In this document: positions 5,551 to 64,000 of the stretch, one piece after another
Position numbering within the stretch: position 1 is the stretch's first letter
Layout of the letters: each line of letters starts with the position of its first letter
Assembly (NCBI GenBank): GCA_965205605.1
Contig: CBDBHE010000008.1
Location: 40,695-104,694 of the forward strand
Source: Spirochaetota bacterium
GTDB taxonomy: Bacteria; Spirochaetota; UBA12135; COTS27; CBDBHE01
Length of the DNA stretch: 64,000 nt
Reading direction: 5' to 3'
Made by a program: the position numbers and the translations under genes
Notes under the pieces: model-generated
Told to the model about the DNA's origin: nothing
Databases searched by the model: none
Seen by the model: only the letters and a program-made list of their open reading frames with translations

Positions 5551-5816
5551 TTTTTTACTTTAAAGAGAATGCTTTAATAAGCAAATAATCCTTTTTTAAA
5601 AAATTCCAAACTTAATTTCATCTCTTTTTATCAAAAAATTCAAAATAATTTTTAACCACTAATCCCTTCAAGTTCATTATTCTACTCTTGACTTTACTTT
5701 TTAAATTAAAAAAAGAAATAAAAAAACCTACAATAATTAAAAAGCTATTTATAATATATTTTATAAAGTATTTATTTATTTTGCATAATGGGTTTTTTAT
5801 ATTTTTTTTAATTAAC

Positions 5817-6959
5817 TTATGGCATTTTATCAAGTTGAAAAGAAAACCAAGCCTTAACATCTGTTTTATAAGGATTAGTAATAACAGGGTCTAATAAAGT
5901 TTCATAATAAACCAATTTATGATTACTCTCTCCTATTAAAAAAACATCTTTCTTCGTTTTTGAAAAAAATTGCGGTACCCCTATTGCTGCATGGTGATAG
6001 TTAAAAGAAAGTAAAATCTCCGAATCCACTTTCAAGTGTCTCAAAAGAATGTGTAATAACAACGATTTTGTATCACAATCTCCTTTTTTTTCTAAAATAC
6101 AATTTAAAGGAGTTTTAATAATTTCCTTACCGTTTAGTATTTCTGTTTTCATATTCCTAATGACAAGGTAAATATAATTAAACAAAGTAAACGTCTTTTC
6201 TTTTGGATAAAGATCTTTTAATTCCTTAACTAAAAAGCCTACCGATTCATAAGAGCTCCTAAAAATCATTCGATAAAAACGCTTAAGAGCATTATAATTA
6301 ACATCAGGGTAAGTTAAAATAATTTCGGTTTCTCGTTTGACAACAGCTTCCATTAAAGCAATATCTTGATAATTAAAAAAAACTTCAAATGTATGTAATT
6401 CAAAAGAAACTTTTTTTTTATCTACCATTTTTTTTCTTCTTGAAACTGGAAATGCTAAATAACTAAAAGGACCTGGTTTTAAATAAGTTTCTTCATTAAT
6501 TGAAAAAGAATCAAATAATGAAGCAATAAACAACTTGTTATTTGTAAAATCTTTATCGTTACAAAGAGATATCATTAAAACAGGATGTGAGTTTTTTTTA
6601 AAAAAACAAAATAATTGGGCTTTAACAAGCTCATTATCAATTACCAATTGACCATCAATAAAGTAAGATTGATAGGAAAAATAATTTATTTCCTCACCGA
6701 TTCCTTTCAGCTTTAGTTGTTTTTTGGTAAAATCGACAAATTGCTTCAAGCTAGAAAATCGATTGTTTTGATAAGTAATGATTTGAAAAGTAATGCCTTT
6801 TTTTGCATTAATCCATTGAATCATCTTAGGAGCTTTTTGATCATCTATTTTAAAATTAGAATGAATATCCACTAGCCATTTTGCTTGTGAATTTCTATAA
6901 ACCAAAGCTTGTAAATTTAGAAATAAAAAGAAGAATAAAAGAAAAAATTTAATTAACAT
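5817..6959 (-). CDS. Hypothetical secreted protein, possible transglutaminase-like cysteine-peptidase fold
   Basis: 380-aa ORF with signal-peptide-like N-terminus; C-terminal segment GDCDTKSLLLHILLRHLKVD...YHHAAIGV resembles a transglutaminase-like Cys/His core. Weak inference. Confidence 0.45.
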   Translation of the reverse strand: MLIKFFLLFFFLFLNLQALVYRNSQAKWLVDIHSNFKIDDQKAPKMIQWINAKKGITFQIITYQNNRFSSLKQFVDFTKKQLKLKGIGEEINYFSYQSYFIDGQLVIDNELVKAQLFCFFKKNSHPVLMISLCNDKDFTNNKLFIASLFDSFSINEETYLKPGPFSYLAFPVSRRKKMVDKKKVSFELHTFEVFFNYQDIALMEAVVKRETEIILTYPDVNYNALKRFYRMIFRSSYESVGFLVKELKDLYPKEKTFTLFNYIYLVIRNMKTEILNGKEIIKTPLNCILEKKGDCDTKSLLLHILLRHLKVDSEILLSFNYHHAAIGVPQFFSKTKKDVFLIGESNHKLVYYETLLDPVITNPYKTDVKAWFSFQLDKMP

Positions 6960-12178: not shown

Positions 12179-12614
12179 AAAAAATACTCCTAAGTTTGAT
12201 TTTTAATCAATACTTTTATTTAAATACATAATAATTAAAATTCTAACATAAAAAACATTATTTTTAATGAAAATAATATTGCCTAATAACAATAATAAGT
12301 GAAATTATTAGATGTTTTTCTTAAATTAATAAACCACAAATGAGATTTTTTCTTGGAAGCTTGCAAATTTTTTAAAAAAATTTTTACCTATTTTTTGCAT
12401 ATAGCTGTCATCTCCTTCGTTTTGTAGAATGTAACAAACCCTCTTTAATTTGGAAAAATGCTCAAAAAATCAAAGAATTTTAAAAAAAAAATCTCACCAC
12501 ACAAATCAATCCACCCAACAATTCCTAAAATAAAATCATTCCCTTGTGCTAATTGTAAAAGCTATCTTGTTTAATTCTAAAATTTCTCTTGGTTGTACCG
12601 AAACACAGCCTTGT

Positions 12615-12658
12615 ATACCACAAAAACAAAACTTTAATACCACAAAAACAAAACTTTA
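12615..12658. repeat. Tandem direct repeat, 22 bp x 2 (taccacaaaaacaaaactttaa / ...tttag)
   Basis: Read directly: units at 12615-12636 and 12637-12658, 21 of 22 identical, inside a 535-bp spacer with no ORF of 60 aa or more. Confidence 0.6.
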
Positions 12659-12714
12659 GAATATTTCCAAAAATGCCAATGCCAATCAATTCTTATCACA
12701 AATACACCCCATCT

Positions 12715-25765: not shown

Positions 25766-26860
25766 TTAGCTAGCCTTCTTGTTTAAAATCAAATCACAAG
25801 TTTTGCTTACTTGCTTCACAGTAATACTTTGCATACAAATAGGATTTTTACATCCTTTAAATTTTCCTTGATAACACGGACTACAAGTTATTTTAGATTC
25901 TAAAATTATACTGTTATGTGATAAAGGAGCTTTTTCTTTAGGATCAGTTGGTCCAAAAATAGAAATAATAGGGACATCCATACTTGCTGCAAGGTGCATC
26001 CCTCCTGTATCTCCTGTGAGAAATACATGAGCTTCTTTTAAAAAAAAGCTAAATTCTTTTAAAGAAAGTTTCGCACAAAGATTAATCATTTTTGCTTTAG
26101 AAGATTGTTTCAAAACAGAATTTTTAATTTCCTCACAAAGACTTTCATCAGCTTTTCCTCCAACAAGAAAAAAAATTTCCTTTTCATCAGAAGGCTTCTT
26201 TAATCGATCACAAATAAAATCGATATACATTTCTTTTGGCCATCTTCTAACCGTGACTGATTCTCCTGGATTACTGCCTCCACCAGGATTAATAAAAATG
26301 TTCTTTTCTTTTTTTTTCAAAAAATAAGCTTTTTTAATTTGTTTCAAGGTTTTATTAAAAGAAGTCTGACCTGTAAAAAAATCTAATTTTTTACTCTCTT
26401 TTACAAAATTAGTAGAATCAACTAAACGTAAAAACTCTTTAATATGATGTTCTCTGTCTTGAAAAAAATCCTTTAAAAATAAAGGGATTTTTAAAAAAGA
26501 AACCCATTTTATAAAAGAGATTTTTTTTCCCTTTATAAGAGAAAAAAACAAATAAAGTAATTTATTTCGATGAAAAAAATAAATACACTCATATTTATTT
26601 TGATAAAGTTTCCAAAAAAGCTTTGCTAAAAGGCTCAGCTTTCTTTCATAAAATAAAGCATCATCAACAACAATTATTTGATCAATTAAAGGATTGTTTT
26701 CTAAAACTTGATGCGACCAATTACCAACCAAATAATGAATCGTGCTTTTAGGGTGTGTTTTTTTTATCAAACGAAGCGCTGGTGTTGTCATTAAAACATC
26801 ACCAATAGCTCCTAGCTTAATAATAAGAATTTTCGCCTTTTTAGTAGGCATTTTTATCAA
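25766..26860 (-). CDS. ADP-heptose:LPS heptosyltransferase family (GT9)
   Basis: ILIIKLGAIGDVLMTTPALRLIKKTHP N-terminal GT9 motif and C-terminal GDTGGMHLAASMDVP; 364 aa. Confidence 0.75.
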   Translation of the reverse strand: MIKMPTKKAKILIIKLGAIGDVLMTTPALRLIKKTHPKSTIHYLVGNWSHQVLENNPLIDQIIVVDDALFYERKLSLLAKLFWKLYQNKYECIYFFHRNKLLYLFFSLIKGKKISFIKWVSFLKIPLFLKDFFQDREHHIKEFLRLVDSTNFVKESKKLDFFTGQTSFNKTLKQIKKAYFLKKKEKNIFINPGGGSNPGESVTVRRWPKEMYIDFICDRLKKPSDEKEIFFLVGGKADESLCEEIKNSVLKQSSKAKMINLCAKLSLKEFSFFLKEAHVFLTGDTGGMHLAASMDVPIISIFGPTDPKEKAPLSHNSIILESKITCSPCYQGKFKGCKNPICMQSITVKQVSKTCDLILNKKAS

Positions 26861-28244
26861 AAAAAACTTTGTAAGCTGTATTTAAAATAATTTTTATATC
26901 AAAAAGCAAAGTCCAGTTATCAATATAGTAAACATCAAACTCAATTCTTTTTTCAATTGATGTGTTTCCGCGCAATCCATTAATTTGAGCCCACCCTGTA
27001 ATCCCTGACTTCATTTTATGTCTTAACATGTACCTAGGAACTACAAGTTTGAACTGTTCAATAAAATAAGGCCTCTCGGGTCTAGGGCCAACAACAGACA
27101 TTTGACCAAGTAAAACATTAAAAAATTGCGGAATTTCATCTAAAGAAGTTTTTCTTAAAAATTTCCCTAATTTTGTTGCTCGTTTTTCCCCTATTTTAGA
27201 CCAAATAGGCCCTGTTTTTGTTTCAAAATTTACTGGCATCGTACGAAATTTAATAATCTTAAATACTTTATTATCAAGCCCTGCTCTTTTTTGTAAATAA
27301 AAAATAGAGCCTCTAGAATCAAATTTAATTAAAATAGCAATTAAAATAAACAAAGGAGAAAAAGAAATTAAAAACAAAATAGAAAAAATAATATCAAAAG
27401 TTCTTTTTGAAAATTGATCCCACCCATACATAGGACTATCGACTAAACTAATAACCGGCACTCCTCCAATATTACTGATATCACTATTAAGCAACATATC
27501 ATACTGATAAATATCAGGAACAAACATCACTGAAACCGAACATCGCTTCAACGTATTTAAAATACTTGTAAGTCGACTATAGTAACCCCAATCAAGACTA
27601 ATAAAAACATGATTAATTTGATACTTTTTTAAAACTTCTTCTAAGCGATTAATAGAACCAATTAATTGAAAATTTTTATTTATTTTCTTTGAAGGATTAT
27701 CTAAAAAACCAACCACTCGGTACCCAAACCAAAACTCTTCTTTTAGCTTTTGACTAATTTTCATTCCAACAGCACCTGCTCCAATAATTAAAACATTTTT
27801 AGTATTAATTCCTTTTTTTCTTAAATAACGTAGTAATCGCCTAAAAAAAAAACGAGAAGAAGTTAAAAGAATAACACTAATCATCCAAAAATAAACAATA
27901 ATAATTCTTGAATACCCAGGTCCTTTTTTCATTAAAAAAATAAAAATAATAAACAAACTTAAAGCAATACTCACCCCTTTAAAAACTTTAGGAGCTTCAA
28001 AAATAACCCAAGCCCCTCTTTTGATTTTATACAAATCAAAAAGCATAAACACACTAATACAAACAGGAATAAAAATATACATCATTTGAAAATAAATTTC
28101 TTTAGAGGGAAACCCATAAATTAAAGGAAGCCAATTTTTAGTTTGAATTCTAAGTTGATAAGATAAATAAATACTAGAAAGTAAAAGAAAAGAATCAACT
28201 AAAATAAGTAAAAAAGTATAAGGGTGAAAATATTTTTTAAACAA
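26841..28244 (-). CDS. Undecaprenyl-phosphate sugar phosphotransferase (WbaP/WcaJ-like priming glycosyltransferase)
   Basis: N-terminal TM helices, central Rossmann-like domain, C-terminal bacterial sugar-transferase motif SLDEIPQFFNVLLGQMSVVGPRPE; 467 aa. Confidence 0.8.
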   Translation of the reverse strand: MFKKYFHPYTFLLILVDSFLLLSSIYLSYQLRIQTKNWLPLIYGFPSKEIYFQMMYIFIPVCISVFMLFDLYKIKRGAWVIFEAPKVFKGVSIALSLFIIFIFLMKKGPGYSRIIIVYFWMISVILLTSSRFFFRRLLRYLRKKGINTKNVLIIGAGAVGMKISQKLKEEFWFGYRVVGFLDNPSKKINKNFQLIGSINRLEEVLKKYQINHVFISLDWGYYSRLTSILNTLKRCSVSVMFVPDIYQYDMLLNSDISNIGGVPVISLVDSPMYGWDQFSKRTFDIIFSILFLISFSPLFILIAILIKFDSRGSIFYLQKRAGLDNKVFKIIKFRTMPVNFETKTGPIWSKIGEKRATKLGKFLRKTSLDEIPQFFNVLLGQMSVVGPRPERPYFIEQFKLVVPRYMLRHKMKSGITGWAQINGLRGNTSIEKRIEFDVYYIDNWTLLFDIKIILNTAYKVFFDKNAY

Positions 28245-28773: not shown

Positions 28774-29022
28774 TTAAAGACGGCAATTCTTAATATTTAA
28801 CTCTAAAATTCCTGTTGCTCCTATTGTTTCTAACAAATCAATCATCTCAAATACTTTATCTTTAAGAACTAAAGCTCGAATAGAAAGTAAGTCTTCATCA
28901 TCTAAAGGCAAAACAGTTGGTGAGTTATAACCAGGTGTAATTTTCTCAACTATTTTTAATTTTTCTTTAGGAATATTATACTCCAACATGCTATAAGAAC
29001 GAGCAATTAAAATCCCTTCCAA
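28774..29022 (-). CDS. hisG: ATP phosphoribosyltransferase HisG, C-terminal regulatory domain; out of frame with the upstream catalytic portion
   Basis: 82-aa ORF YNIPKEKLKIVEKITPGYNSPTVLPLDDEDLL...ETIGATGILELNIKN aligns with the E. coli HisG C-terminus ([23 protein letters not shown]...LGASSILVLPIEK). Frame changes at an A8 run. Confidence 0.7.
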   Translation of the reverse strand: MEGILIARSYSMLEYNIPKEKLKIVEKITPGYNSPTVLPLDDEDLLSIRALVLKDKVFEMIDLLETIGATGILELNIKNCRL

Positions 29023-29642
29023 TTTTTTTTAAAATGCAAAATTTCTTTTTTATTTGCCATTTCTTTTGTCGTAAATAAACTACATTCATAACTCTCCAAA
29101 GGTTCAATAACTTTAAGATGATTGCTTTTTAAACTATCACCTGTTTCAACTAAATCAACAATGAAATCACAAACCCCAAGAGCAATCATAATTTCAACAC
29201 TTCCACTCATAGGAATAATAGAAACTTTTATTTTTTTTTCTTTAAAATAATTGGCTGTTAAATTTGGAAAAGAAGTTGCAACTATTTTTCCAGATAATTG
29301 AGAAATCTCTCGGTAAATAAAGTCTTTTTTAGTGATAATAGCTAGTTTACAGATTCCATAATTAAGTTTTAAGAGATTTTGTAATACTCCCACTTTATAT
29401 TCAACTACAAGGTCTTCGCCTGTAATACCAAGGTCAATGGCCTCTTTGCTAATTAAAGTAGGAATATCAGCAGCTCTTACAAAGATAAACTCAATTTCTG
29501 CATTCAAACAAGTCGCATACAAGGCCTTATTTCGCAATCGAAAAATATACCCCGCTTCTTTTAAAATAAAAACACTGGGCTCAAAAAGTCTTCCTTTTTT
29601 AGGAATTCCAATTTTTAATTTTGAAGGATCCAAAAAACTCAT
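29007..29642 (-). CDS. hisG: ATP phosphoribosyltransferase HisG, catalytic portion; terminates at a frameshift
   Basis: 211-aa ORF MSFLDPSKLKIGIPKKGRLFE... with HisG catalytic-domain features; stop falls 3 codons after the A8 tract at 29023-29030. Confidence 0.75.
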   Translation of the reverse strand: MSFLDPSKLKIGIPKKGRLFEPSVFILKEAGYIFRLRNKALYATCLNAEIEFIFVRAADIPTLISKEAIDLGITGEDLVVEYKVGVLQNLLKLNYGICKLAIITKKDFIYREISQLSGKIVATSFPNLTANYFKEKKIKVSIIPMSGSVEIMIALGVCDFIVDLVETGDSLKSNHLKVIEPLESYECSLFTTKEMANKKEILHFKKNWKGF

Positions 29643-29647
29643 TGAAA

Positions 29648-29977
29648 TTATTTACGCCTTTGTTTTTCTTCTAAACCACTAGTACCAAATCGTTTTGAAA
29701 ACTCCAAAAGTAAATCATCAAAGCAAATCTCAAAATAAGAAGCAAGAACAAAAACATGAAATAAAAGATCCACAATCTCATAAATCATTTTATCTTTTTG
29801 ATAGTTTTTTTCTTTCATAGATTCTTGGCAAAGTTCAATAGTTTCTTCGATGATTTTTTTATTCATTTCTTTAGTCCCTTTTTTCATAAGGAAAGCAACA
29901 TATGATTGATCACTGGCCGTTTCTTTTCTTTTTTCAAGAACATCAAAAAGTTTAAATAAAATAGAAGGATCTGACAT
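29648..29977 (-). CDS. hisE: Phosphoribosyl-ATP pyrophosphatase (HisE, MazG-like)
   Basis: 109-aa ORF; FKLFDVLEKRKETASDQSYVAFLMKKGTKEMNKKIIEE and EIVDLLFHVFVLASYFEI match the HisE family. Confidence 0.7.
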   Translation of the reverse strand: MSDPSILFKLFDVLEKRKETASDQSYVAFLMKKGTKEMNKKIIEETIELCQESMKEKNYQKDKMIYEIVDLLFHVFVLASYFEICFDDLLLEFSKRFGTSGLEEKQRRK

Positions 29978-30042: not shown

Positions 30043-32244
30043 CTAAACCTTAAGAATAGATAAAAGTTCTTCTTTACTAGAAGCTTCAAGAAGCTTGTTT
30101 CGATAAGACTGATTCATTAAAAAGTTGGCAACTCTTGATAAAATAGCTAAATGCTTTTGAATATCATTAGAGGGGATTAAATTGAAAAAAATAAGTTTCA
30201 CCGGTTTTTCATGACTTTTTTCAAATTTAATAGGAGTCGATAATTTAACAACACACAAAATAGAAGCTTTGATTTCTTTTAAAAACAAATGAGGGAATAA
30301 AATTTCTTCATCTAAACTAGTAAACTCTTGCTTATTTTTAGATAAAAATTCATTTAAAACAAAGTCTTTTGATATAGCAGGGTATTTACTAACAATCTTT
30401 TTAAGTAGAAAATTTAAAACTCCCTTATAATCTTTAATTGAAGAATAAAAAACAAATTTATCTTTTTTAATTAAATCCATAATAGATTCTTTTTTTCTAG
30501 AAAGGTATAAAGAAACAACAGGTTGTTTTTTTTCAATTAATGAATTTCTTTCATCTTTATTAAAAATCACTTTTCTATCAACAATGCCCAATAAAAAAAA
30601 TTTATCTCTAATGTTTTTTTTATTATTATTTACAACATGAAGATTCGTATTTAAATTTTGAATTTCATCGGAAATAACAGAAAGTTTTGGAAAATTAGTC
30701 CAAATAGATTTACCAATCCTTTCTAAAAAAGTATCTTGATTGCCTCCAAAACTAACCCAACAATAAACATTTTTTCTTCCAACCATTTTTGACCATTGTT
30801 GACATAAAAGGGTGTTTAGTTCTTCATTATCTGTAAGAGCTAAAACAATTCCTACTTCTGAAAAACGCTCATCTTCTAATAAATTAGGGTCCATCGAATC
30901 TTCTAAAAAAACCGTATAGCCTTTTTTTCTAGCCGCATCAACTTTGCTTTTATTTCTATCAAGAAAAATAATTTCTTTTTTACCTTTACTAATTAAAAAA
31001 TCAGCAATATTTTCTGAAAAAAGATGAATCCCTATCACCAAACAACTATTTAATTGGCTTCTTTTTACCTTAAGTACTTTGGCCACTAATCCCGCTGTAA
31101 ATCCTTGAACGATAACGGTTGTTGTGATCACCATAAAAGTAAAAGTTTCAAGAAACCAAGTGCCTTCAACCCCTTGATCCTTTAAACTAACACTAAAAAG
31201 TGTTGCTATAGATGCTGCAATGACTCCTCTAGGAGCAATCCAAGAAATAAAAAGTTTATCTCTTAAACTTAAACCACTTTTAAAAGTTGATAAAAAAACA
31301 GAAAGAGGCCTAGCAACTAAAATTACAAATAAAATAAGCCATATTCCCCTAAAACCAAATAACTTGAAATTAAGAATATTAATTTTTGAAGACAGTAAAA
31401 TAAACACAATAGCGATAAAAATCTGAGTTAATTCTAATTTGAATTTCCTTAGATTTTCCATTGGAATCGGTTTTTTAATCCCAATAATTAATCCTGCTAC
31501 AACAACAGCAAGTAAACCTGATTCTTTAACAATAAAGTCACAAACCCCAAAAGTCGTTAAAGCAATGCCTAAAACAAAAATATTCGTCAAATCTCGTGGA
31601 ATAATATTTCGTTTTAAAAGAAAGTAAGATAAAAACCCAAAAACACAACCCAAAATAATGCCTGTAAGAAATTGTAAAAAAAACTGAGAAATAGCAACAA
31701 AAGCAAACTCTTTTCCCACAATCTCAAAACATAAAATAGCAATGAAAACTCCAATAGGGTCATTTAAAACTCCTTCCCAATGTAAAATTTGATTGATATC
31801 TTTTTTAGGTTTCACTCTACGTAAAAGAGGAAGGATAACAGTAGGCCCTGTTACAATAACCAAACTACCTGCCAAAAGAGAAAAAGAAATCGAATAAGAA
31901 AAAATAAAATAGATAAATAACGAAATCGATAACCACGTCGTTAAAATACCAACACTAAGCAACCTTCTAATCACCTTGTTTAAATTTCTATAGTTAGAAT
32001 AATCTAAGGTTAAACCTCCTTCAAAAAGAATAATCGCAACAGAAATAGAAATAAAGACTCTTAAAAAAGGACCAAAAACATCAACATCAATAACCCCCAG
32101 TCCTTCTTCCCCAAATAATACCCCTACTATAATTAGTAGTGGTATCGATGGAATACGTAGTTTCCTAGAGAAAACTAGTGTAAATACTCCTAAAGAAACA
32201 CAAAAAACAATCGTCTTTAAAATTAATTCATAAGAATGTATCAT
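30043..32244 (-). CDS. Cation:proton antiporter (CPA1/NhaP-type Na+/H+ exchanger) with C-terminal regulatory domains including a PTS EIIA(Ntr)-like domain
   Basis: 733 aa; N-terminal ~400-aa polytopic exchanger domain, then soluble TrkA-like region and C-terminal EIIA-2-like segment. Confidence 0.75.
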   Translation of the reverse strand: MIHSYELILKTIVFCVSLGVFTLVFSRKLRIPSIPLLIIVGVLFGEEGLGVIDVDVFGPFLRVFISISVAIILFEGGLTLDYSNYRNLNKVIRRLLSVGILTTWLSISLFIYFIFSYSISFSLLAGSLVIVTGPTVILPLLRRVKPKKDINQILHWEGVLNDPIGVFIAILCFEIVGKEFAFVAISQFFLQFLTGIILGCVFGFLSYFLLKRNIIPRDLTNIFVLGIALTTFGVCDFIVKESGLLAVVVAGLIIGIKKPIPMENLRKFKLELTQIFIAIVFILLSSKINILNFKLFGFRGIWLILFVILVARPLSVFLSTFKSGLSLRDKLFISWIAPRGVIAASIATLFSVSLKDQGVEGTWFLETFTFMVITTTVIVQGFTAGLVAKVLKVKRSQLNSCLVIGIHLFSENIADFLISKGKKEIIFLDRNKSKVDAARKKGYTVFLEDSMDPNLLEDERFSEVGIVLALTDNEELNTLLCQQWSKMVGRKNVYCWVSFGGNQDTFLERIGKSIWTNFPKLSVISDEIQNLNTNLHVVNNNKKNIRDKFFLLGIVDRKVIFNKDERNSLIEKKQPVVSLYLSRKKESIMDLIKKDKFVFYSSIKDYKGVLNFLLKKIVSKYPAISKDFVLNEFLSKNKQEFTSLDEEILFPHLFLKEIKASILCVVKLSTPIKFEKSHEKPVKLIFFNLIPSNDIQKHLAILSRVANFLMNQSYRNKLLEASSKEELLSILKV

Positions 32245-32762: not shown

Positions 32763-34241
32763 ATGAAAATAACAAAAAAAACTCTTTTATTTCTTATTTT
32801 TTCTTTTTTTACTCTCATAAAAGCAGAAGAAGTAATTCAAAACTCCAAAAATAATCAACTTTCTTATCCAAAATTAAAAGTTTTTATCAAAGCAACTGAA
32901 TGGCAATACGCTCTTAATAAACCAGCTCTGTTTAAAATAACGATTATTAATGAATCAAGTAATGATAATGTGTTTCGACTTCATTTATATGAAAATCCAT
33001 TTCACCATTTTAAAATTAAGGTTTTTGATCAATATGAAAATAGACTCCCAGAAACACTTAACTATTCTACTTGGAAAGGAACTCTTATTGAAAAAAATGA
33101 AAAACCTCGCCGAATCCATCTCAAACAAGGAGAAAGATTTACAACTTTAATTGACTTGTCTAAATGGGTTGATTTTAATAAATCAGGAAAATTTTTCGTA
33201 GAAGGCACTTTTTTCCCAAACCCTTTTTTTGAAGAAAATGCTTATTCTTATAAAATCAGCCATTTATCTTTTAACGTGAGCAAAGAAGAATCTCAAATTA
33301 TTTATAAAAAAAAACCCTCAAAGGAAATTGTTCAAATTCAAAAAAAATTCGAATCTTCTCAATCTTCTCCTAAAAATACGGTTATCAAACATCTTACCTC
33401 TCACATAGAAGAAAAATGGAACCATTTTTTTAAAACAGTTGACACCAAACAATACTTAGAAAATTCTTACGCATCAACAGAAATTTACGAACGCTTCAAA
33501 ACTTCTAAACATGACGAAAGAATCATTATTTTAAAAGAATTTGAAGCCTTTCTCATTAAAAATAGTGATTATAAAATTGATTCTTTTGAAATCTTAGAAA
33601 CTTACATTAAAAAAGATGAAAAAGCAGAGGTTAAGGTTTATATAAAAACCAAAAATAAAAATGAAAAATATTCTAAAAAATTCAACCCTTTAACAGGACA
33701 AATAGAAGATATTTGGAAATCTAGTGATGTCTATACTTTCCTTCAAGATAAAATATTTCAATATTACCTTGAAAAAACCCAAGAGGAATGGAAAATTATT
33801 CAGAAAAAAATAAAAATCTTAAAAAAAGATATTACAAAAGCAAAAGAAACAAAAACTGTTACTACTTTTACAGAACAAAAAAGTCAAATTCCTCCCACTT
33901 TTATTCCTATTATAGAAAATGTTATTTTCAAAAGGGGGCAAAGTGAGTTTATAACAAACTCTTACCCTACTCTAAAAAAAGCTTCCAAACTCTTAAAACA
34001 ATTCCCTTACTTATTCATAACAATTCGTGGTCATACTGATACTGAAGGCAATAGTGAGCTTAATTATCAACTTTCCCTACAACGTGTCTTGGCAGTAAAA
34101 AATCATTTAATTAAAAATGGTCTTTCAAAAAAACGTATTCAACTAGAAGCTTATGGAGAAAAGAAACCCATTTATCAAGAAGAAGATGAAAATTTAAAAG
34201 AAAAAAATAGACGTGTCGAAATTATTTTTAGTCATAACTAA
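32763..34241 (+). CDS. OmpA-family protein (signal peptide; C-terminal OmpA-like peptidoglycan-binding domain)
   Basis: C-terminal ITIRGHTDTEGNSELNYQLSLQRVLAVKNHLIKNGL...NRRVEIIF is a canonical OmpA_C domain; 492 aa. Confidence 0.75.
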   Translation: MKITKKTLLFLIFSFFTLIKAEEVIQNSKNNQLSYPKLKVFIKATEWQYALNKPALFKITIINESSNDNVFRLHLYENPFHHFKIKVFDQYENRLPETLNYSTWKGTLIEKNEKPRRIHLKQGERFTTLIDLSKWVDFNKSGKFFVEGTFFPNPFFEENAYSYKISHLSFNVSKEESQIIYKKKPSKEIVQIQKKFESSQSSPKNTVIKHLTSHIEEKWNHFFKTVDTKQYLENSYASTEIYERFKTSKHDERIIILKEFEAFLIKNSDYKIDSFEILETYIKKDEKAEVKVYIKTKNKNEKYSKKFNPLTGQIEDIWKSSDVYTFLQDKIFQYYLEKTQEEWKIIQKKIKILKKDITKAKETKTVTTFTEQKSQIPPTFIPIIENVIFKRGQSEFITNSYPTLKKASKLLKQFPYLFITIRGHTDTEGNSELNYQLSLQRVLAVKNHLIKNGLSKKRIQLEAYGEKKPIYQEEDENLKEKNRRVEIIFSHN

Positions 34242-43206: not shown

Positions 43207-43695
43207 ATGGAAATTATTAATACATTCAAAGAAAAATTAAAAGAAGACTTTATTACCAAGAAAGCAAACGAACAGTATTCTCTTAAAGATTTTCGAGAAG
43301 GCTTTGATTGGATAACAGAAGTGATTGAAAAAAAACTAGAAAAAGAAACTGAAGAAATTTTAAAAGATTACTTGAAAAAAAATGAATACTCTATTTTTTA
43401 TAACTATCTCCTAGCCAGTCTTTTTTATCGTTTAAAAATATCAAATGAAGACCTTAATAATAAACTTTTAAAAATAGCCTCTCAAACTCAAAAAGGAACC
43501 GTCCTTATCCATTTGGCAAAAGAGATCTTAAATCACTCGGTATCTTTAAATGCTTTAAATATCTTAGCTTTAGAATATGAAAAAGAACACGATGAAGATA
43601 ACCTTCTTGAAACTTGGGTTCAAATTTTAAAAATTGATAACATAAATACAACCCTTCCTAAAAGAATAGCTGCTTTAAAAGAAAAAAAAAAATGA
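43207..43695 (+). CDS. Hypothetical protein, N-terminal portion of a frameshifted gene
   Basis: 162-aa ORF ending KEKKK* inside an A11 tract (43682-43692); the +1 frame is open from 43679 to 45391. Confidence 0.5.
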   Translation: MEIINTFKEKLKEDFITKKANEQYSLKDFREGFDWITEVIEKKLEKETEEILKDYLKKNEYSIFYNYLLASLFYRLKISNEDLNNKLLKIASQTQKGTVLIHLAKEILNHSVSLNALNILALEYEKEHDEDNLLETWVQILKIDNINTTLPKRIAALKEKKK

Positions 43696-44050
43696 AACTA
43701 GTGAAGCCACTTATTATTATAAAATAGCTTTTATTAAAGCTTATGAATCAAAAGAAATTGAAGAAGCTTTAAAAATTTGGAAGCAATTATCAAAAATTAA
43801 CCCTAAAGATCCTGCTTTTTATCTTACTCAAGGTAAAAAAATAGCAAATAAACTAAACTCTGAAGAAAAAAGAAACTTATACAAATACATTATTAATTAT
43901 TATGAAAAAAATTTAGAAGGAAATGAAAAAGAATTTCTTTCTATTTTAAAATCAATTGTAAACAATAAAATTTTTCAAGAAAATCTTAATCATCTTTTAG
44001 CTAAGACTTACTCTAGACTCTATAAAAGCCACTCTCATTTAGAAGATGTT

Positions 44051-45391
44051 TTGGCAATGAGTGGTCTTACAAAAAAGAAGAACATCACAAAAGGAATCGA
44101 AATTTTTGAAAGTCATATTAAATATCACGTTGGAGCTTTTGTACTTCACAAAAGCTTTGGTCTTGGAATGATTGAATCAATTCAAAAACCTATGGGGAGT
44201 AAAATTTTTGACATGATCCAACAAACAAAATTAACTATCAAATTTGAAAAAAATAAAAATCACCCTATGAGTTTAAGGATCGCTATTAATTCTCTACAAG
44301 TTTTACCCGAAGAACATCTTCATGCTTTACACCATTTTAAAAAAGAAAAAATTAACGATATTTTAGAAAATCAAGAAAATTTCGCTTCTAGTATTTTGAA
44401 AACACTTGGAAAACCAGCCAGTGTTAAAGAGATAAAATCTCTTTTAATCCCTAAATTTATTGAAAATGCTAAATGGTCAGATGTATGGAAAAAACTAAAA
44501 GAAACTTTTCATCATTCTTCAAAATTTGAACTTAAAAATAAACATTATGACTTCTTTCAAGAATCTTTAAACATCGAATCAATAACGATAAAACTTTTTG
44601 AAAATAGCTCTTCACTAGAGAAAAAATATCATCAAATCGAATTTTATCTTATGCATTCTTCTAAATATAATGAAAATATATTAAATCAATTTACTGATTA
44701 CTTAAAAGAATATATCCAAAATAAAAAAGAAGATTCATTAAAAGCTCTTTTTTTACTTGAACACCTTATAAAAAGTTATCATTTAAAAATAACATTTGAT
44801 TTTGATCATTTTTTTAAAGCTCTCTTTGATATCCATTTAACTGAAAAAACATTTTCAAATTTAGAAACTAGTACTTTAAAAAACCTTTTTTTAAACTCTG
44901 TTTATAATTTAAAAAAAGTAAATTATGAAGAAACTATTTCTTTTTTACTAGAAAAAACTAATGTTGATAAAAAACAACTCATTATCGATCATGTCATTCA
45001 TAAGGGACAATATGAAATTTTAAAAACAATATTTGAAAATGCAACTAATCACTATACAAAATATCCTGAAACCTTTATTTTGCTTTCAAAGATCTTTATT
45101 GTTGACTATCCCCAACATTTTGATTTAAATAAAAGTAATGTTTTCTTAAAATTACTTAAAATAAGCTATGATCTCAACAAAGATTACACTCTCTCTAATA
45201 AAATTCTACATGGAAAAAAATTATTTTTACTCATCAAAAACTTTCTTTTTGAAGATGAAATTTTATTTGACCACCTTAAAAATGAAAAAAATAGTGAAAT
45301 TAAAAATAACATTTTTAAAGAATTAGAAAGTCTTTATTTTTTAGACAATTATTTAAAAGTTAAAATAAGAGAAGTTAGAGAAAAAGCCTAA
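44051..45391 (+). CDS. Hypothetical protein with CarD/TRCF-RID-like (Tudor-like) motif, C-terminal portion of a frameshifted gene
   Basis: Track ORF of 446 aa; its frame is stop-free for a further 124 codons upstream (43679-44050) with no ATG, so translation likely continues from the 43207 ORF. Motif YHVGAFVLHKSFGLGMIESI resembles the CarD / PcrA C-terminal Tudor-like signature. Confidence 0.5.
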   Translation: MAMSGLTKKKNITKGIEIFESHIKYHVGAFVLHKSFGLGMIESIQKPMGSKIFDMIQQTKLTIKFEKNKNHPMSLRIAINSLQVLPEEHLHALHHFKKEKINDILENQENFASSILKTLGKPASVKEIKSLLIPKFIENAKWSDVWKKLKETFHHSSKFELKNKHYDFFQESLNIESITIKLFENSSSLEKKYHQIEFYLMHSSKYNENILNQFTDYLKEYIQNKKEDSLKALFLLEHLIKSYHLKITFDFDHFFKALFDIHLTEKTFSNLETSTLKNLFLNSVYNLKKVNYEETISFLLEKTNVDKKQLIIDHVIHKGQYEILKTIFENATNHYTKYPETFILLSKIFIVDYPQHFDLNKSNVFLKLLKISYDLNKDYTLSNKILHGKKLFLLIKNFLFEDEILFDHLKNEKNSEIKNNIFKELESLYFLDNYLKVKIREVREKA

Positions 45392-45395
45392 AAAG

Positions 45396-46544
45396 TTAAT
45401 TTTTTTTAAACTCACTAGTTAACTCGATTAATAATTCACAACCTTTTTTTAAAACTTCATCTTTGACGGCAAAAGAAAGACGAAAATGAGTATCTTTTTC
45501 AGAAAAAACTTTTCCTGGAACAATCAGCAGATTTTTCTTAATCGCTACTTTAGAAAACTCATCTCCATTCCTCCAAGGACACTCAATAAAAAAATAAAAA
45601 GCTCCCTCTGCTTTAGAAAAATGAAAATCATTTTTTAAAGTTTCATAAACATAATTTCTTTTTTTCAAATACTTGGCAACTTGCTCATTTAAAATAGCAG
45701 TTACTTGTTTTCCATAAGCTAAAAGTACCATTTTTTGAGCTACCGAAGGAGAACAAACAAATGTATATTGTTGCAAATTACTCATTTGTTGAATGATTTC
45801 TCTAGGACCAATAGCATAACCAATTCGCCACCCTGTCATACTATGAGATTTTGAAAATCCATTGAGTAAAATCACTCGTTCGTACAAACCAAAAGGAGAG
45901 GGTAAAATACTTAAAGAAGCCGTCTCTTGATAATAAAATTTTTCATAAATTTCATCTGTAATAATATAAAAACCATGTTTTGAAACTAAAGAAATAATCT
46001 CTTTTATTTCTTTAGAAGAGCAAACTTTGCCTGTAGGATTACTTGGTGAATTAAGAATAATTGCTTTTGTTTTAGAAGTGACAAGAGATTTCAATTGATC
46101 AATTTTAATTGAAAAATCTGGATACGTATTAAGATACACCACTTTAGCTCCTAACCAAAGAGCCAATTGCTTGTACATCACAAAATAAGGATCTGTTATA
46201 ATGACTTCATCTCCTTGATTAAGTAAAACACTAAGGGTTAAAAAAATCCCACCTGAAACACCTGAAGTAATAATAAGATCTTGATTTAAAAGATCGGTTT
46301 TTCTTTCTTTTTTTATTTGGTCTTTAATTAACTCAATAAGAGCTTTGCTTCCTTGGGTTTGTGTATAACTATTGTCATCATTAAAAATAGCTTGCTTAGC
46401 AGCTACTTTCATAGGGGCAGGCAAATTAAAATGAGGTTGCCCAATGCTAAGATTAATGGGATTTTTGAGGTTTTTTGCCATATCAAAAATTTTTCGAATC
46501 CCAGAAGATTCAAAATCTTGCATTCTTTTTGAAATAAAAGACAT
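45396..46544 (-). CDS. PLP-dependent aminotransferase, class I (aspartate aminotransferase family)
   Basis: NPSNPTGK and SKSHSMTGWRIGYAIGP (PLP-binding Lys) motifs; 382 aa. Confidence 0.8.
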   Translation of the reverse strand: MSFISKRMQDFESSGIRKIFDMAKNLKNPINLSIGQPHFNLPAPMKVAAKQAIFNDDNSYTQTQGSKALIELIKDQIKKERKTDLLNQDLIITSGVSGGIFLTLSVLLNQGDEVIITDPYFVMYKQLALWLGAKVVYLNTYPDFSIKIDQLKSLVTSKTKAIILNSPSNPTGKVCSSKEIKEIISLVSKHGFYIITDEIYEKFYYQETASLSILPSPFGLYERVILLNGFSKSHSMTGWRIGYAIGPREIIQQMSNLQQYTFVCSPSVAQKMVLLAYGKQVTAILNEQVAKYLKKRNYVYETLKNDFHFSKAEGAFYFFIECPWRNGDEFSKVAIKKNLLIVPGKVFSEKDTHFRLSFAVKDEVLKKGCELLIELTSEFKKN

Positions 46545-49135: not shown

Positions 49136-49492
49136 TTTAAGATCCTACCTATTTATCAAAAAATTAAAAATAAGATGAAAATTAATAGCATGAATTAACT
49201 ATTAATTCTAATTAATTTTATACTCAAAAAAAACTAAGAAATATTTACTATTTTATTTTTTAAAAATTTTTGATTTTTAATGACTTCAAAAAAATAACAA
49301 TCTAAATATTCGACTTCTTTGTACTCTCTTCCATCATCGCCTGTTCTCCCCTCTTACTTTTTTTAAAAAAGGATGGTAATACACTTTACTTAAAATTATT
49401 TTCATTTCTTCAGTAGACTCTTTAAAATCTAGGTTATAAAAAATTAAATTAAATTTTTTCGCCTTTAAAAAAAAAGTATTTGATTGCTTTCT

Positions 49493-63690: not shown

Positions 63691-64000
63691 ATTTTTTTAA
63701 ATCCCTCAAATAGTTTCATAATATCGTTGATCGTACTAAAAAAAGCACCTTCAAAAAAACCAACCACAAAAGGAAGAATCGCAATCACCATAATCAAACC
63801 AACCATTAAATGAATCGGTAACCCTAAAATCATAATATTTGCTTGTGGAGCTGCTTTTCCAATAAGTCCCAACGCTACAACCACTATCAAAGAAGACACA
63901 ATCACAGGAAGCGCTATTTTTAAAGCAAGTGTAAACATAATACCAAAATACTTAATGGCTTCATTCATAATAAGCTCTCCATTACCAATCATATCAACAG
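63687..64000 (-). CDS. fliR: Flagellar export apparatus protein FliR, C-terminal part; gene extends past the window end
   Basis: Hydrophobic ALKIALPVIV...GKAAPQANIMILGLPIHLMVGL matches the FliR C-terminus; frame is open to position 64000. Confidence 0.7.
   Translation of the reverse strand, partial: VDMIGNGELIMNEAIKYFGIMFTLALKIALPVIVSSLIVVVALGLIGKAAPQANIMILGLPIHLMVGLIMVIAILPFVVGFFEGAFFSTINDIMKLFEGFKKI

Follow-up and report, generated by a model that had tools for sequence, protein, structure and literature searches.

What can be learned about an interrupted hisG from the systems closest to it? Long-form HisG proteins (HisGL) combine catalytic N-terminal domains with a C-terminal regulatory domain (long form as defined in PMC10795190), and representatives have been deposited as PDB entries 2vd3, 1nh7/1nh8, 1h3d and 4yb5. 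The natural short form, HisGS, has chains of 206-232 aa and works together with HisZ (PMC10795190). Interruptions of otherwise intact genes at runs of A are themselves well described, as young poly(A) frameshifts occur in AT-rich genomes (PMC3017870). Those of Blochmannia and Buchnera are partly corrected by slippage (PMC3017870, PMC5574713), and in tssM1 of Citrobacter rodentium an A11 run is associated with a rescue of about 20% (PMC4256274). The hisG gene described here touches on both subjects, being a long-form gene by its domains and an interrupted one by its assembled sequence. Our analysis makes a miscounted homopolymer in the consensus the most likely single cause of the interruption.

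A long-form hisG in two reading frames

Throughout, the window denotes the whole 64-kb stretch of DNA that was analysed. The features of the hisG locus within it are the following.

28774..29022, minus strand: hisG C-terminal regulatory domain, 82 codons and a stop, one base back (-1) relative to the frame of the catalytic part
29007..29642, minus strand: hisG catalytic part as assembled, 211 aa, made up of HisG residues 1-206 followed by NWKGF and a stop
29023..29030, minus strand: A8 run, the point at which the frame changes as judged from sequence and translation; A9 restores the frame
29648..29977, minus strand: hisE (phosphoribosyl-ATP pyrophosphatase), 5 nt upstream of hisG on the same strand

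The two hisG ORFs, both on the minus strand, overlap by 16 nt in different frames. The run at 29023-29030, T8 on the plus strand, is A8 in the sense of hisG, where the strand reads CAT TTT AAA AAA AAT TGG AAG GGA TTT TAA. The initial annotation had described a long-form hisG whose halves lie in different frames at this run, and both the coordinates and the Pfam matches agree with that description. The 211-aa ORF matches HisG (PF01634) with an E value of 7e-43 and 146.7 bits (cut-off 25.5), and the 82-aa ORF matches HisG_C (PF08029) with an E value of 6e-24 and 84.4 bits (cut-off 23.5) over model positions 1-73 of 73. The assignment of the latter ORF as the HisG C-terminal domain, previously made from the letters alone, is thus borne out over the whole model. 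It had also been said that the catalytic ORF stops three codons after the run; a stop does follow soon, but its distance is four sense codons (W K G F) beyond the codon in which the run ends. By inspection of the sequence, neither of the candidate separate starts of the 82-aa ORF, its TTG or an internal ATG, has a recognisable ribosome-binding site.

A single additional A, predicted to yield a long-form protein of about 290 aa, indeed gives a product of 289 aa, which reads ...HFKKKLEGILIAR... across the tract (HFKKK-LEGILIAR) and passes both NCBIfam models: TIGR00070 (hisG) with 174.3 bits (cut-off 75.75) over residues 9-189, and TIGR03455 (HisG_C-term) with 86 bits (cut-off 40.05). The repaired protein is colinear, without gaps, with relatives of 288 aa. 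When it is aligned with eleven homologs (12 sequences in all), the KKK-LEG junction is free of gaps and 61 columns are invariant, the invariant residues kept in the repaired protein including E209, G210, A214, N223, P237, G238 and T243. The N-terminal catalytic domains, the C-terminal regulatory domain and the colinearity across the junction are all as in HisGL. Both parts stand in one polypeptide with A9 and not with A8 as assembled, and membership of the encoded protein in HisGL depends on the true length of the tract. An identity as short-form HisGS with a HisZ partner was considered and rejected, since the next frame goes on to encode a complete HisG_C domain, the listed homologs carry both domains, and no HisZ/HisRS-like ORF is present within the 64-kb window.

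The accompanying hisE gene is recognised by Pfam PRA-PH (E 4e-10) and by TIGR03188 (71 bits, cut-off 42.7). Neither Pfam scans nor the Pfam annotation of the syntenic sister locus introduced below revealed a further his gene in the 64 kb. For the class I/II aminotransferase at 45396-46544, the top models are those of aspartate or general aminotransferases; all of the best 25 of 92 matches fall below their cut-offs, and no histidinol-phosphate aminotransferase model is among these 25. Scans of the window for tRNAs and Rfam families found none, and hence no leader or riboswitch.

The window as a whole has about 28% GC, is 94% coding and consists of long intact ORFs. It contains a flagellar export operon (fliR, flhB, flhA, flhF, a MinD-like ATPase and a sigma factor with sigma-70 regions 2-4) and further encodes recG, leuS, argG, ilvC, ribBA, murJ, ispG, ispF and pyruvate kinase, a siroheme-synthesis pair, sulfite reductase and a TatT-like protein. 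Directly upstream of hisE lies a 733-aa protein (30043-32244, minus strand) with Na+/H+ exchanger, TrkA_N and C-terminal PTS EIIA-2 domains, the domain calls being taken from fragments of its ortholog in the sister locus. Two non-coding gaps are unusually long for the window: 12179-12714 (536 nt), which holds neither an ORF of at least 60 aa nor an Rfam match, and 49136-49492 (357 nt), which lies upstream of a 241-aa histidine kinase having only the C-terminal kinase core.

Tract length, selection and homopolymers

Clustered at 90% identity, the 211-aa ORF has a single companion, a protein of 260 aa from an ENA assembly. Its contig, here called L001, is syntenic with window positions 18878-39274 in the same gene order and at 88-92% nucleotide identity, and it is the only close relative available for a comparison of strains. 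The initial annotation had looked to tract length in other strains, and the A8 does not recur in this one: between identical flanks the tract of L001 is A9, in frame (HFKKKLEGILIAR). The break in the hisG of L001 itself lies at a T run, about 160 nt further downstream. Coverage of L001 is low (the name of its record includes '3x'), and the contig has many homopolymer errors. Compared with the window it has about twenty single-base indels in coding sequence, and at these positions the window keeps a long ORF while the genes of L001 are fragmented. Over L001 10001-10783 and the locus as a whole, single-base indels lie mostly at A/T runs and split the Na/H exchanger, glycosyltransferase and Wzy-like genes, the ortholog of the 733-aa exchanger being in four pieces. 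Judged from these sequences, the gene fragments of L001 should not be read as pseudogenes.

How far can the A9 of such a contig be trusted? The window and L001 have 25 pure A/T8 coding runs in common, of which 22 are of equal length; in L001 a single run is shorter, and the two that are longer include that of hisG. As L001 is longer at only one of the other 24, the probability that its A9 is an insertion error of its own comes to about 4% (about 1 in 24). The A9 of L001 is therefore good evidence for A9, though not proof, given the homopolymer errors of this contig.

At greater distance the run itself disappears. L003, 51% identical, reads AAAGCGCCGC (Lys-Arg-Arg) at the codons of the tract, and among the matches listed all homologs other than the window's own ORF are single ORFs of 283-296 aa with both domains. 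Among these matches, the nearest full-length HisG proteins are about 50% identical, the named ones coming from Spirochaetota/Leptospirales metagenome-assembled genomes. In JGI metagenomes, a search for exact occurrences of the tract at lengths A7-A10 gave no match, and when the proteins of a single genome for each GTDB species were scanned, the only match was a 30%-identical one in Allobutyricicoccus, so that the lineage of the window is absent from the GTDB species representatives. From the sequences compared, AT drift in three basic codons seems to have given rise to the A run.

Selection on hisG was estimated as dN/dS between the window and L001 by the method of Nei and Gojobori, after repair of each copy at its own break. 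The overall value is 0.095 (41 synonymous and 17 non-synonymous differences), with 0.093 upstream of the tract and 0.098 downstream, which indicates purifying selection on both halves; of the 16 genes common to the window and L001, hisG and sulfite reductase share the lowest value. The downstream part shows 6 non-synonymous and 14 synonymous differences and not one stop in 82 AT-rich codons. Low values on both sides and the lack of a stop imply that selection has maintained hisG over practically all of the time since the lineages split, and the lack of any excess of amino-acid change or of a stop in the C-terminal part implies that the frameshift, if real, is very young. The neighbouring hisE is intact in L001 as well, with a dN/dS of 0.23.

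The tract is one of many. The 64 kb contain 174 A/T runs of at least 8, of which 144 lie in frame inside ORFs, about 2.3 per kb of coding sequence; with so extreme a density of long homopolymers, any assembly or population of this organism is prone to frame errors. A scan for frame changes at every A/T run of at least 7 and every G/C run of at least 5 flagged five sites: three ordinary gene boundaries, hisG, and an A11 run. The junctions at 34201-34207, 63692-63698 and 26859-26866 were rejected as broken genes, being boundaries between different genes. An 80-aa ORF at 5618-5860 was likewise rejected as a gene fragment, as it overlaps the end of a 380-aa ORF and its junction has no homopolymer. 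The window thus contains exactly two frame breaks, at A8 and A11, in about 146 long runs, and no other gene damage was found in it. The second break is in the following feature.

43207-45391, plus strand: interrupted GreA-like gene, with the A11 run at 43682-43692

Here a 162-aa ORF stops right after the run, the next frame is open from the run to 45391, and both pieces match NCBIfam PRK14720 (the long spirochaetal 'GreA'). Deletion of one A gives an ORF of 727 aa that matches single-ORF 'transcript cleavage factor' proteins of 735-744 aa over 90-97% of its length, at 29% identity over 96% for the best match and 24% over 90% of the query for Brachyspira. As the 727-aa ORF ends where relatives of 897-917 aa start their GreA/GreB domain, the repaired protein would, by this comparison, be without that domain, like its 735-aa relatives.

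Explanations for the eight-A tract

The explanation that we favour, to which we assign about an even chance of being right, is that the missing A reflects a miscount of homopolymer length in the consensus and that the organism has an intact long-form HisG of 289 aa. A working hisG would then have nine A's, coding for Lys-Lys-Lys in the linker that joins the catalytic core to the histidine-binding regulatory domain, where the assembly has eight, and the intact enzyme would catalyse the conversion of ATP and PRPP to PR-ATP under feedback inhibition through its C-terminal domain. Arguing for this are the two full-length, high-scoring HisG domains that A9 joins without a gap relative to the 288-aa homologs, the A9 within identical flanks in L001 and its small chance of being an error there, the strength of purifying selection, and the fact that both breaks of the window fall at long A runs, with no lesion of any other kind. 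The initial annotation had offered a homopolymer sequencing error as its alternative, and that alternative is still a live one. Length-dependent failure at about 1% of tracts is what is expected of a long-read or low-coverage consensus. Two breaks in 146 runs fit such a consensus; they fit a couple of young, real poly(A) frameshifts equally well. Against a miscount it can be said that A8 may be the true genotype: the window is otherwise clean, with the intact copy at the other coding indels relative to L001, a miscount of A8 would be rare if the assembly is from short reads, the comparison leans on a low-coverage contig with many homopolymer errors, and real poly(A) frameshifts are well documented in AT-rich genomes (PMC3017870). 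The artefact is in this sense inferred.

A substantial possibility, to which we give somewhat less than an even chance, is that A8 is real and arose by a very recent replication-slippage deletion from A9 to A8 in the strain or population. In its favour, wherever else the window and L001 differ by a single coding base, it is the window that has the intact copy, and the break falls exactly at the linker between core and regulatory part: 5ub9, a solved truncated core of a long-form enzyme, aligns to residues 7-205 of the 211-aa product. The truncated core is reportedly dimeric, active and insensitive to histidine. By analogy, the main product of the gene would be a 211-aa core that lacks the regulatory domain, is possibly active and is no longer inhibited by histidine. 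A few mRNAs would gain an A by slippage of RNA polymerase and yield some full-length HisG, so that hisG would be a pseudogene in the making or a 'leaky' frameshift that is tolerated, rather than a case of long-term decay. Precedents are the poly(A) frameshifts in otherwise intact genes of Blochmannia and Buchnera (PMC3017870), the steep climb of transcriptional insertions with the length of A/T runs (PMC5574713) and the rescue at the A11 run of tssM1 (PMC4256274). Countering this, rescue by E. coli RNA polymerase at A8 is barely detectable (PMC6260861), and hisG is among the most constrained genes of its neighbourhood, which disfavours a fixed knock-out unless histidine is supplied. An older frameshift is disfavoured in addition by the C-terminal part, with its lack of excess amino-acid changes and of stops.

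That both hisG at its A8 and the GreA-like gene at its A11 are truly frameshifted, with an RNA polymerase that slips often enough to supply full-length protein, is a long shot. Were it so, a flagellated spirochaete of 28% GC with many intact biosynthetic genes would routinely tolerate poly(A) frameshifts in constrained genes, hisG would yield a feedback-insensitive core along with a little regulated full-length enzyme, and rescue by polymerase infidelity of the endosymbiont type would extend to an organism that does not resemble a reduced endosymbiont.

The initial annotation had thought a decaying pathway in a host-associated organism plausible, that is, a hisG pseudogene left with hisE after loss of the operon and amid long-term decay of histidine biosynthesis. 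The AT-rich genome and the lack of other his genes in the 64 kb would suit this, but the remaining evidence makes it very improbable. There is a single lesion, and the site is in frame in L001; dN/dS is low and equal on both sides of the break, where a decaying pseudogene would show relaxed selection, several lesions or both; and hisE is intact and constrained. The genes argG, ilvC, ribBA, ispG, ispF, those for siroheme and sulfite reductase are all intact in the window, and so is the full flagellar export operon. Moreover, the hisE-hisG pair also stands alone among unrelated neighbours in relatives that are 49-51% identical (L003, on a 49-kb contig; L004; and L005, on a 3.16-Mb contig), so that the lone unit is the normal layout of the lineage and not a sign of decay. 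Whether hisZ occurs elsewhere has no bearing here, since HisZ is not used by the long form of HisG (PMC10795190).

The least probable reading, barely credible in our estimate, holds that A8 is conserved and that either -1 ribosomal frameshifting on A_AAA_AAU or programmed transcriptional slippage provides full-length HisG, with the unregulated core and the regulated enzyme in constant proportion. Formally, the tract does include an X_XXY_YYZ heptamer in the zero frame, purifying selection acts on the domain downstream, and the A9 of L001 carries its roughly 4% chance of being an insertion error. Against this, the tract is not conserved, being A9 and in frame in L001 and free of any run in L003, with the other listed homologs as single ORFs; A8 is below the length required for efficient slippage of bacterial RNA polymerase (PMC6260861); and the 116 nt at and after the tract fold worse than shuffled sequences (minimum free energy -10.3 kcal/mol against a shuffle mean of -15.2, z = +1.58). 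No Shine-Dalgarno-like element was seen upstream of the tract on inspection of the sequence. With neither a conserved slippery site out of frame nor a stimulatory element, a programmed site is unlikely; incidental rescue by low-level slippage is possible.

Comparison with known systems

What follows for the reading of this genome? Whether the tract was miscounted or has slipped recently, either would be an event of a well-known kind in a well-known gene. The hisG of the window should not be counted as evidence of lost histidine biosynthesis or of host dependence, and the same caution in annotation applies to the GreA-like gene interrupted at A11. If both frameshifts were real, the genome would be a test case for the buffering of homopolymer frameshifts by slippage outside obligate endosymbionts.

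Among the frameshifted genes, the cases of Blochmannia and Buchnera resemble hisG in that a single indel in an A run interrupts a gene that is otherwise undamaged and shows no relaxation of selection (PMC3017870, PMC5574713). They differ in having been confirmed by resequencing or cDNA and in lying mostly in runs of 9-12, whereas the run of hisG is 8 and is read from the assembly alone; in addition, and unlike in these organisms, the gene content of the window does not suggest a reduced endosymbiont. The tssM1 gene of Citrobacter rodentium likewise has an A run before a premature stop, which parts an N-terminal product from an out-of-frame C-terminal domain (PMC4256274). In that gene, however, the run has eleven A's, neither product is dispensable and the site is found again in tssM of Yersinia pseudotuberculosis, whereas the site of hisG is not conserved even in L001.

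Among HisG proteins, the 211-aa product shares its end boundary with the engineered Campylobacter jejuni core (5ub9) and is similar in length to the natural HisGS chains. The latter depend on a partner for which the window has no similar gene, and its hisG groups with the long forms. It is HisGL to which the encoded protein corresponds most closely: the repaired 289-aa protein matches 2vd3 over residues 8-284 with an E value of 7e-46, and the other long-form structures end to end. The differences are that its identity to the nearest full-length relatives is only about 50% and that, in hisG as assembled, the catalytic and regulatory parts that form a single chain in HisGL lie in different frames.
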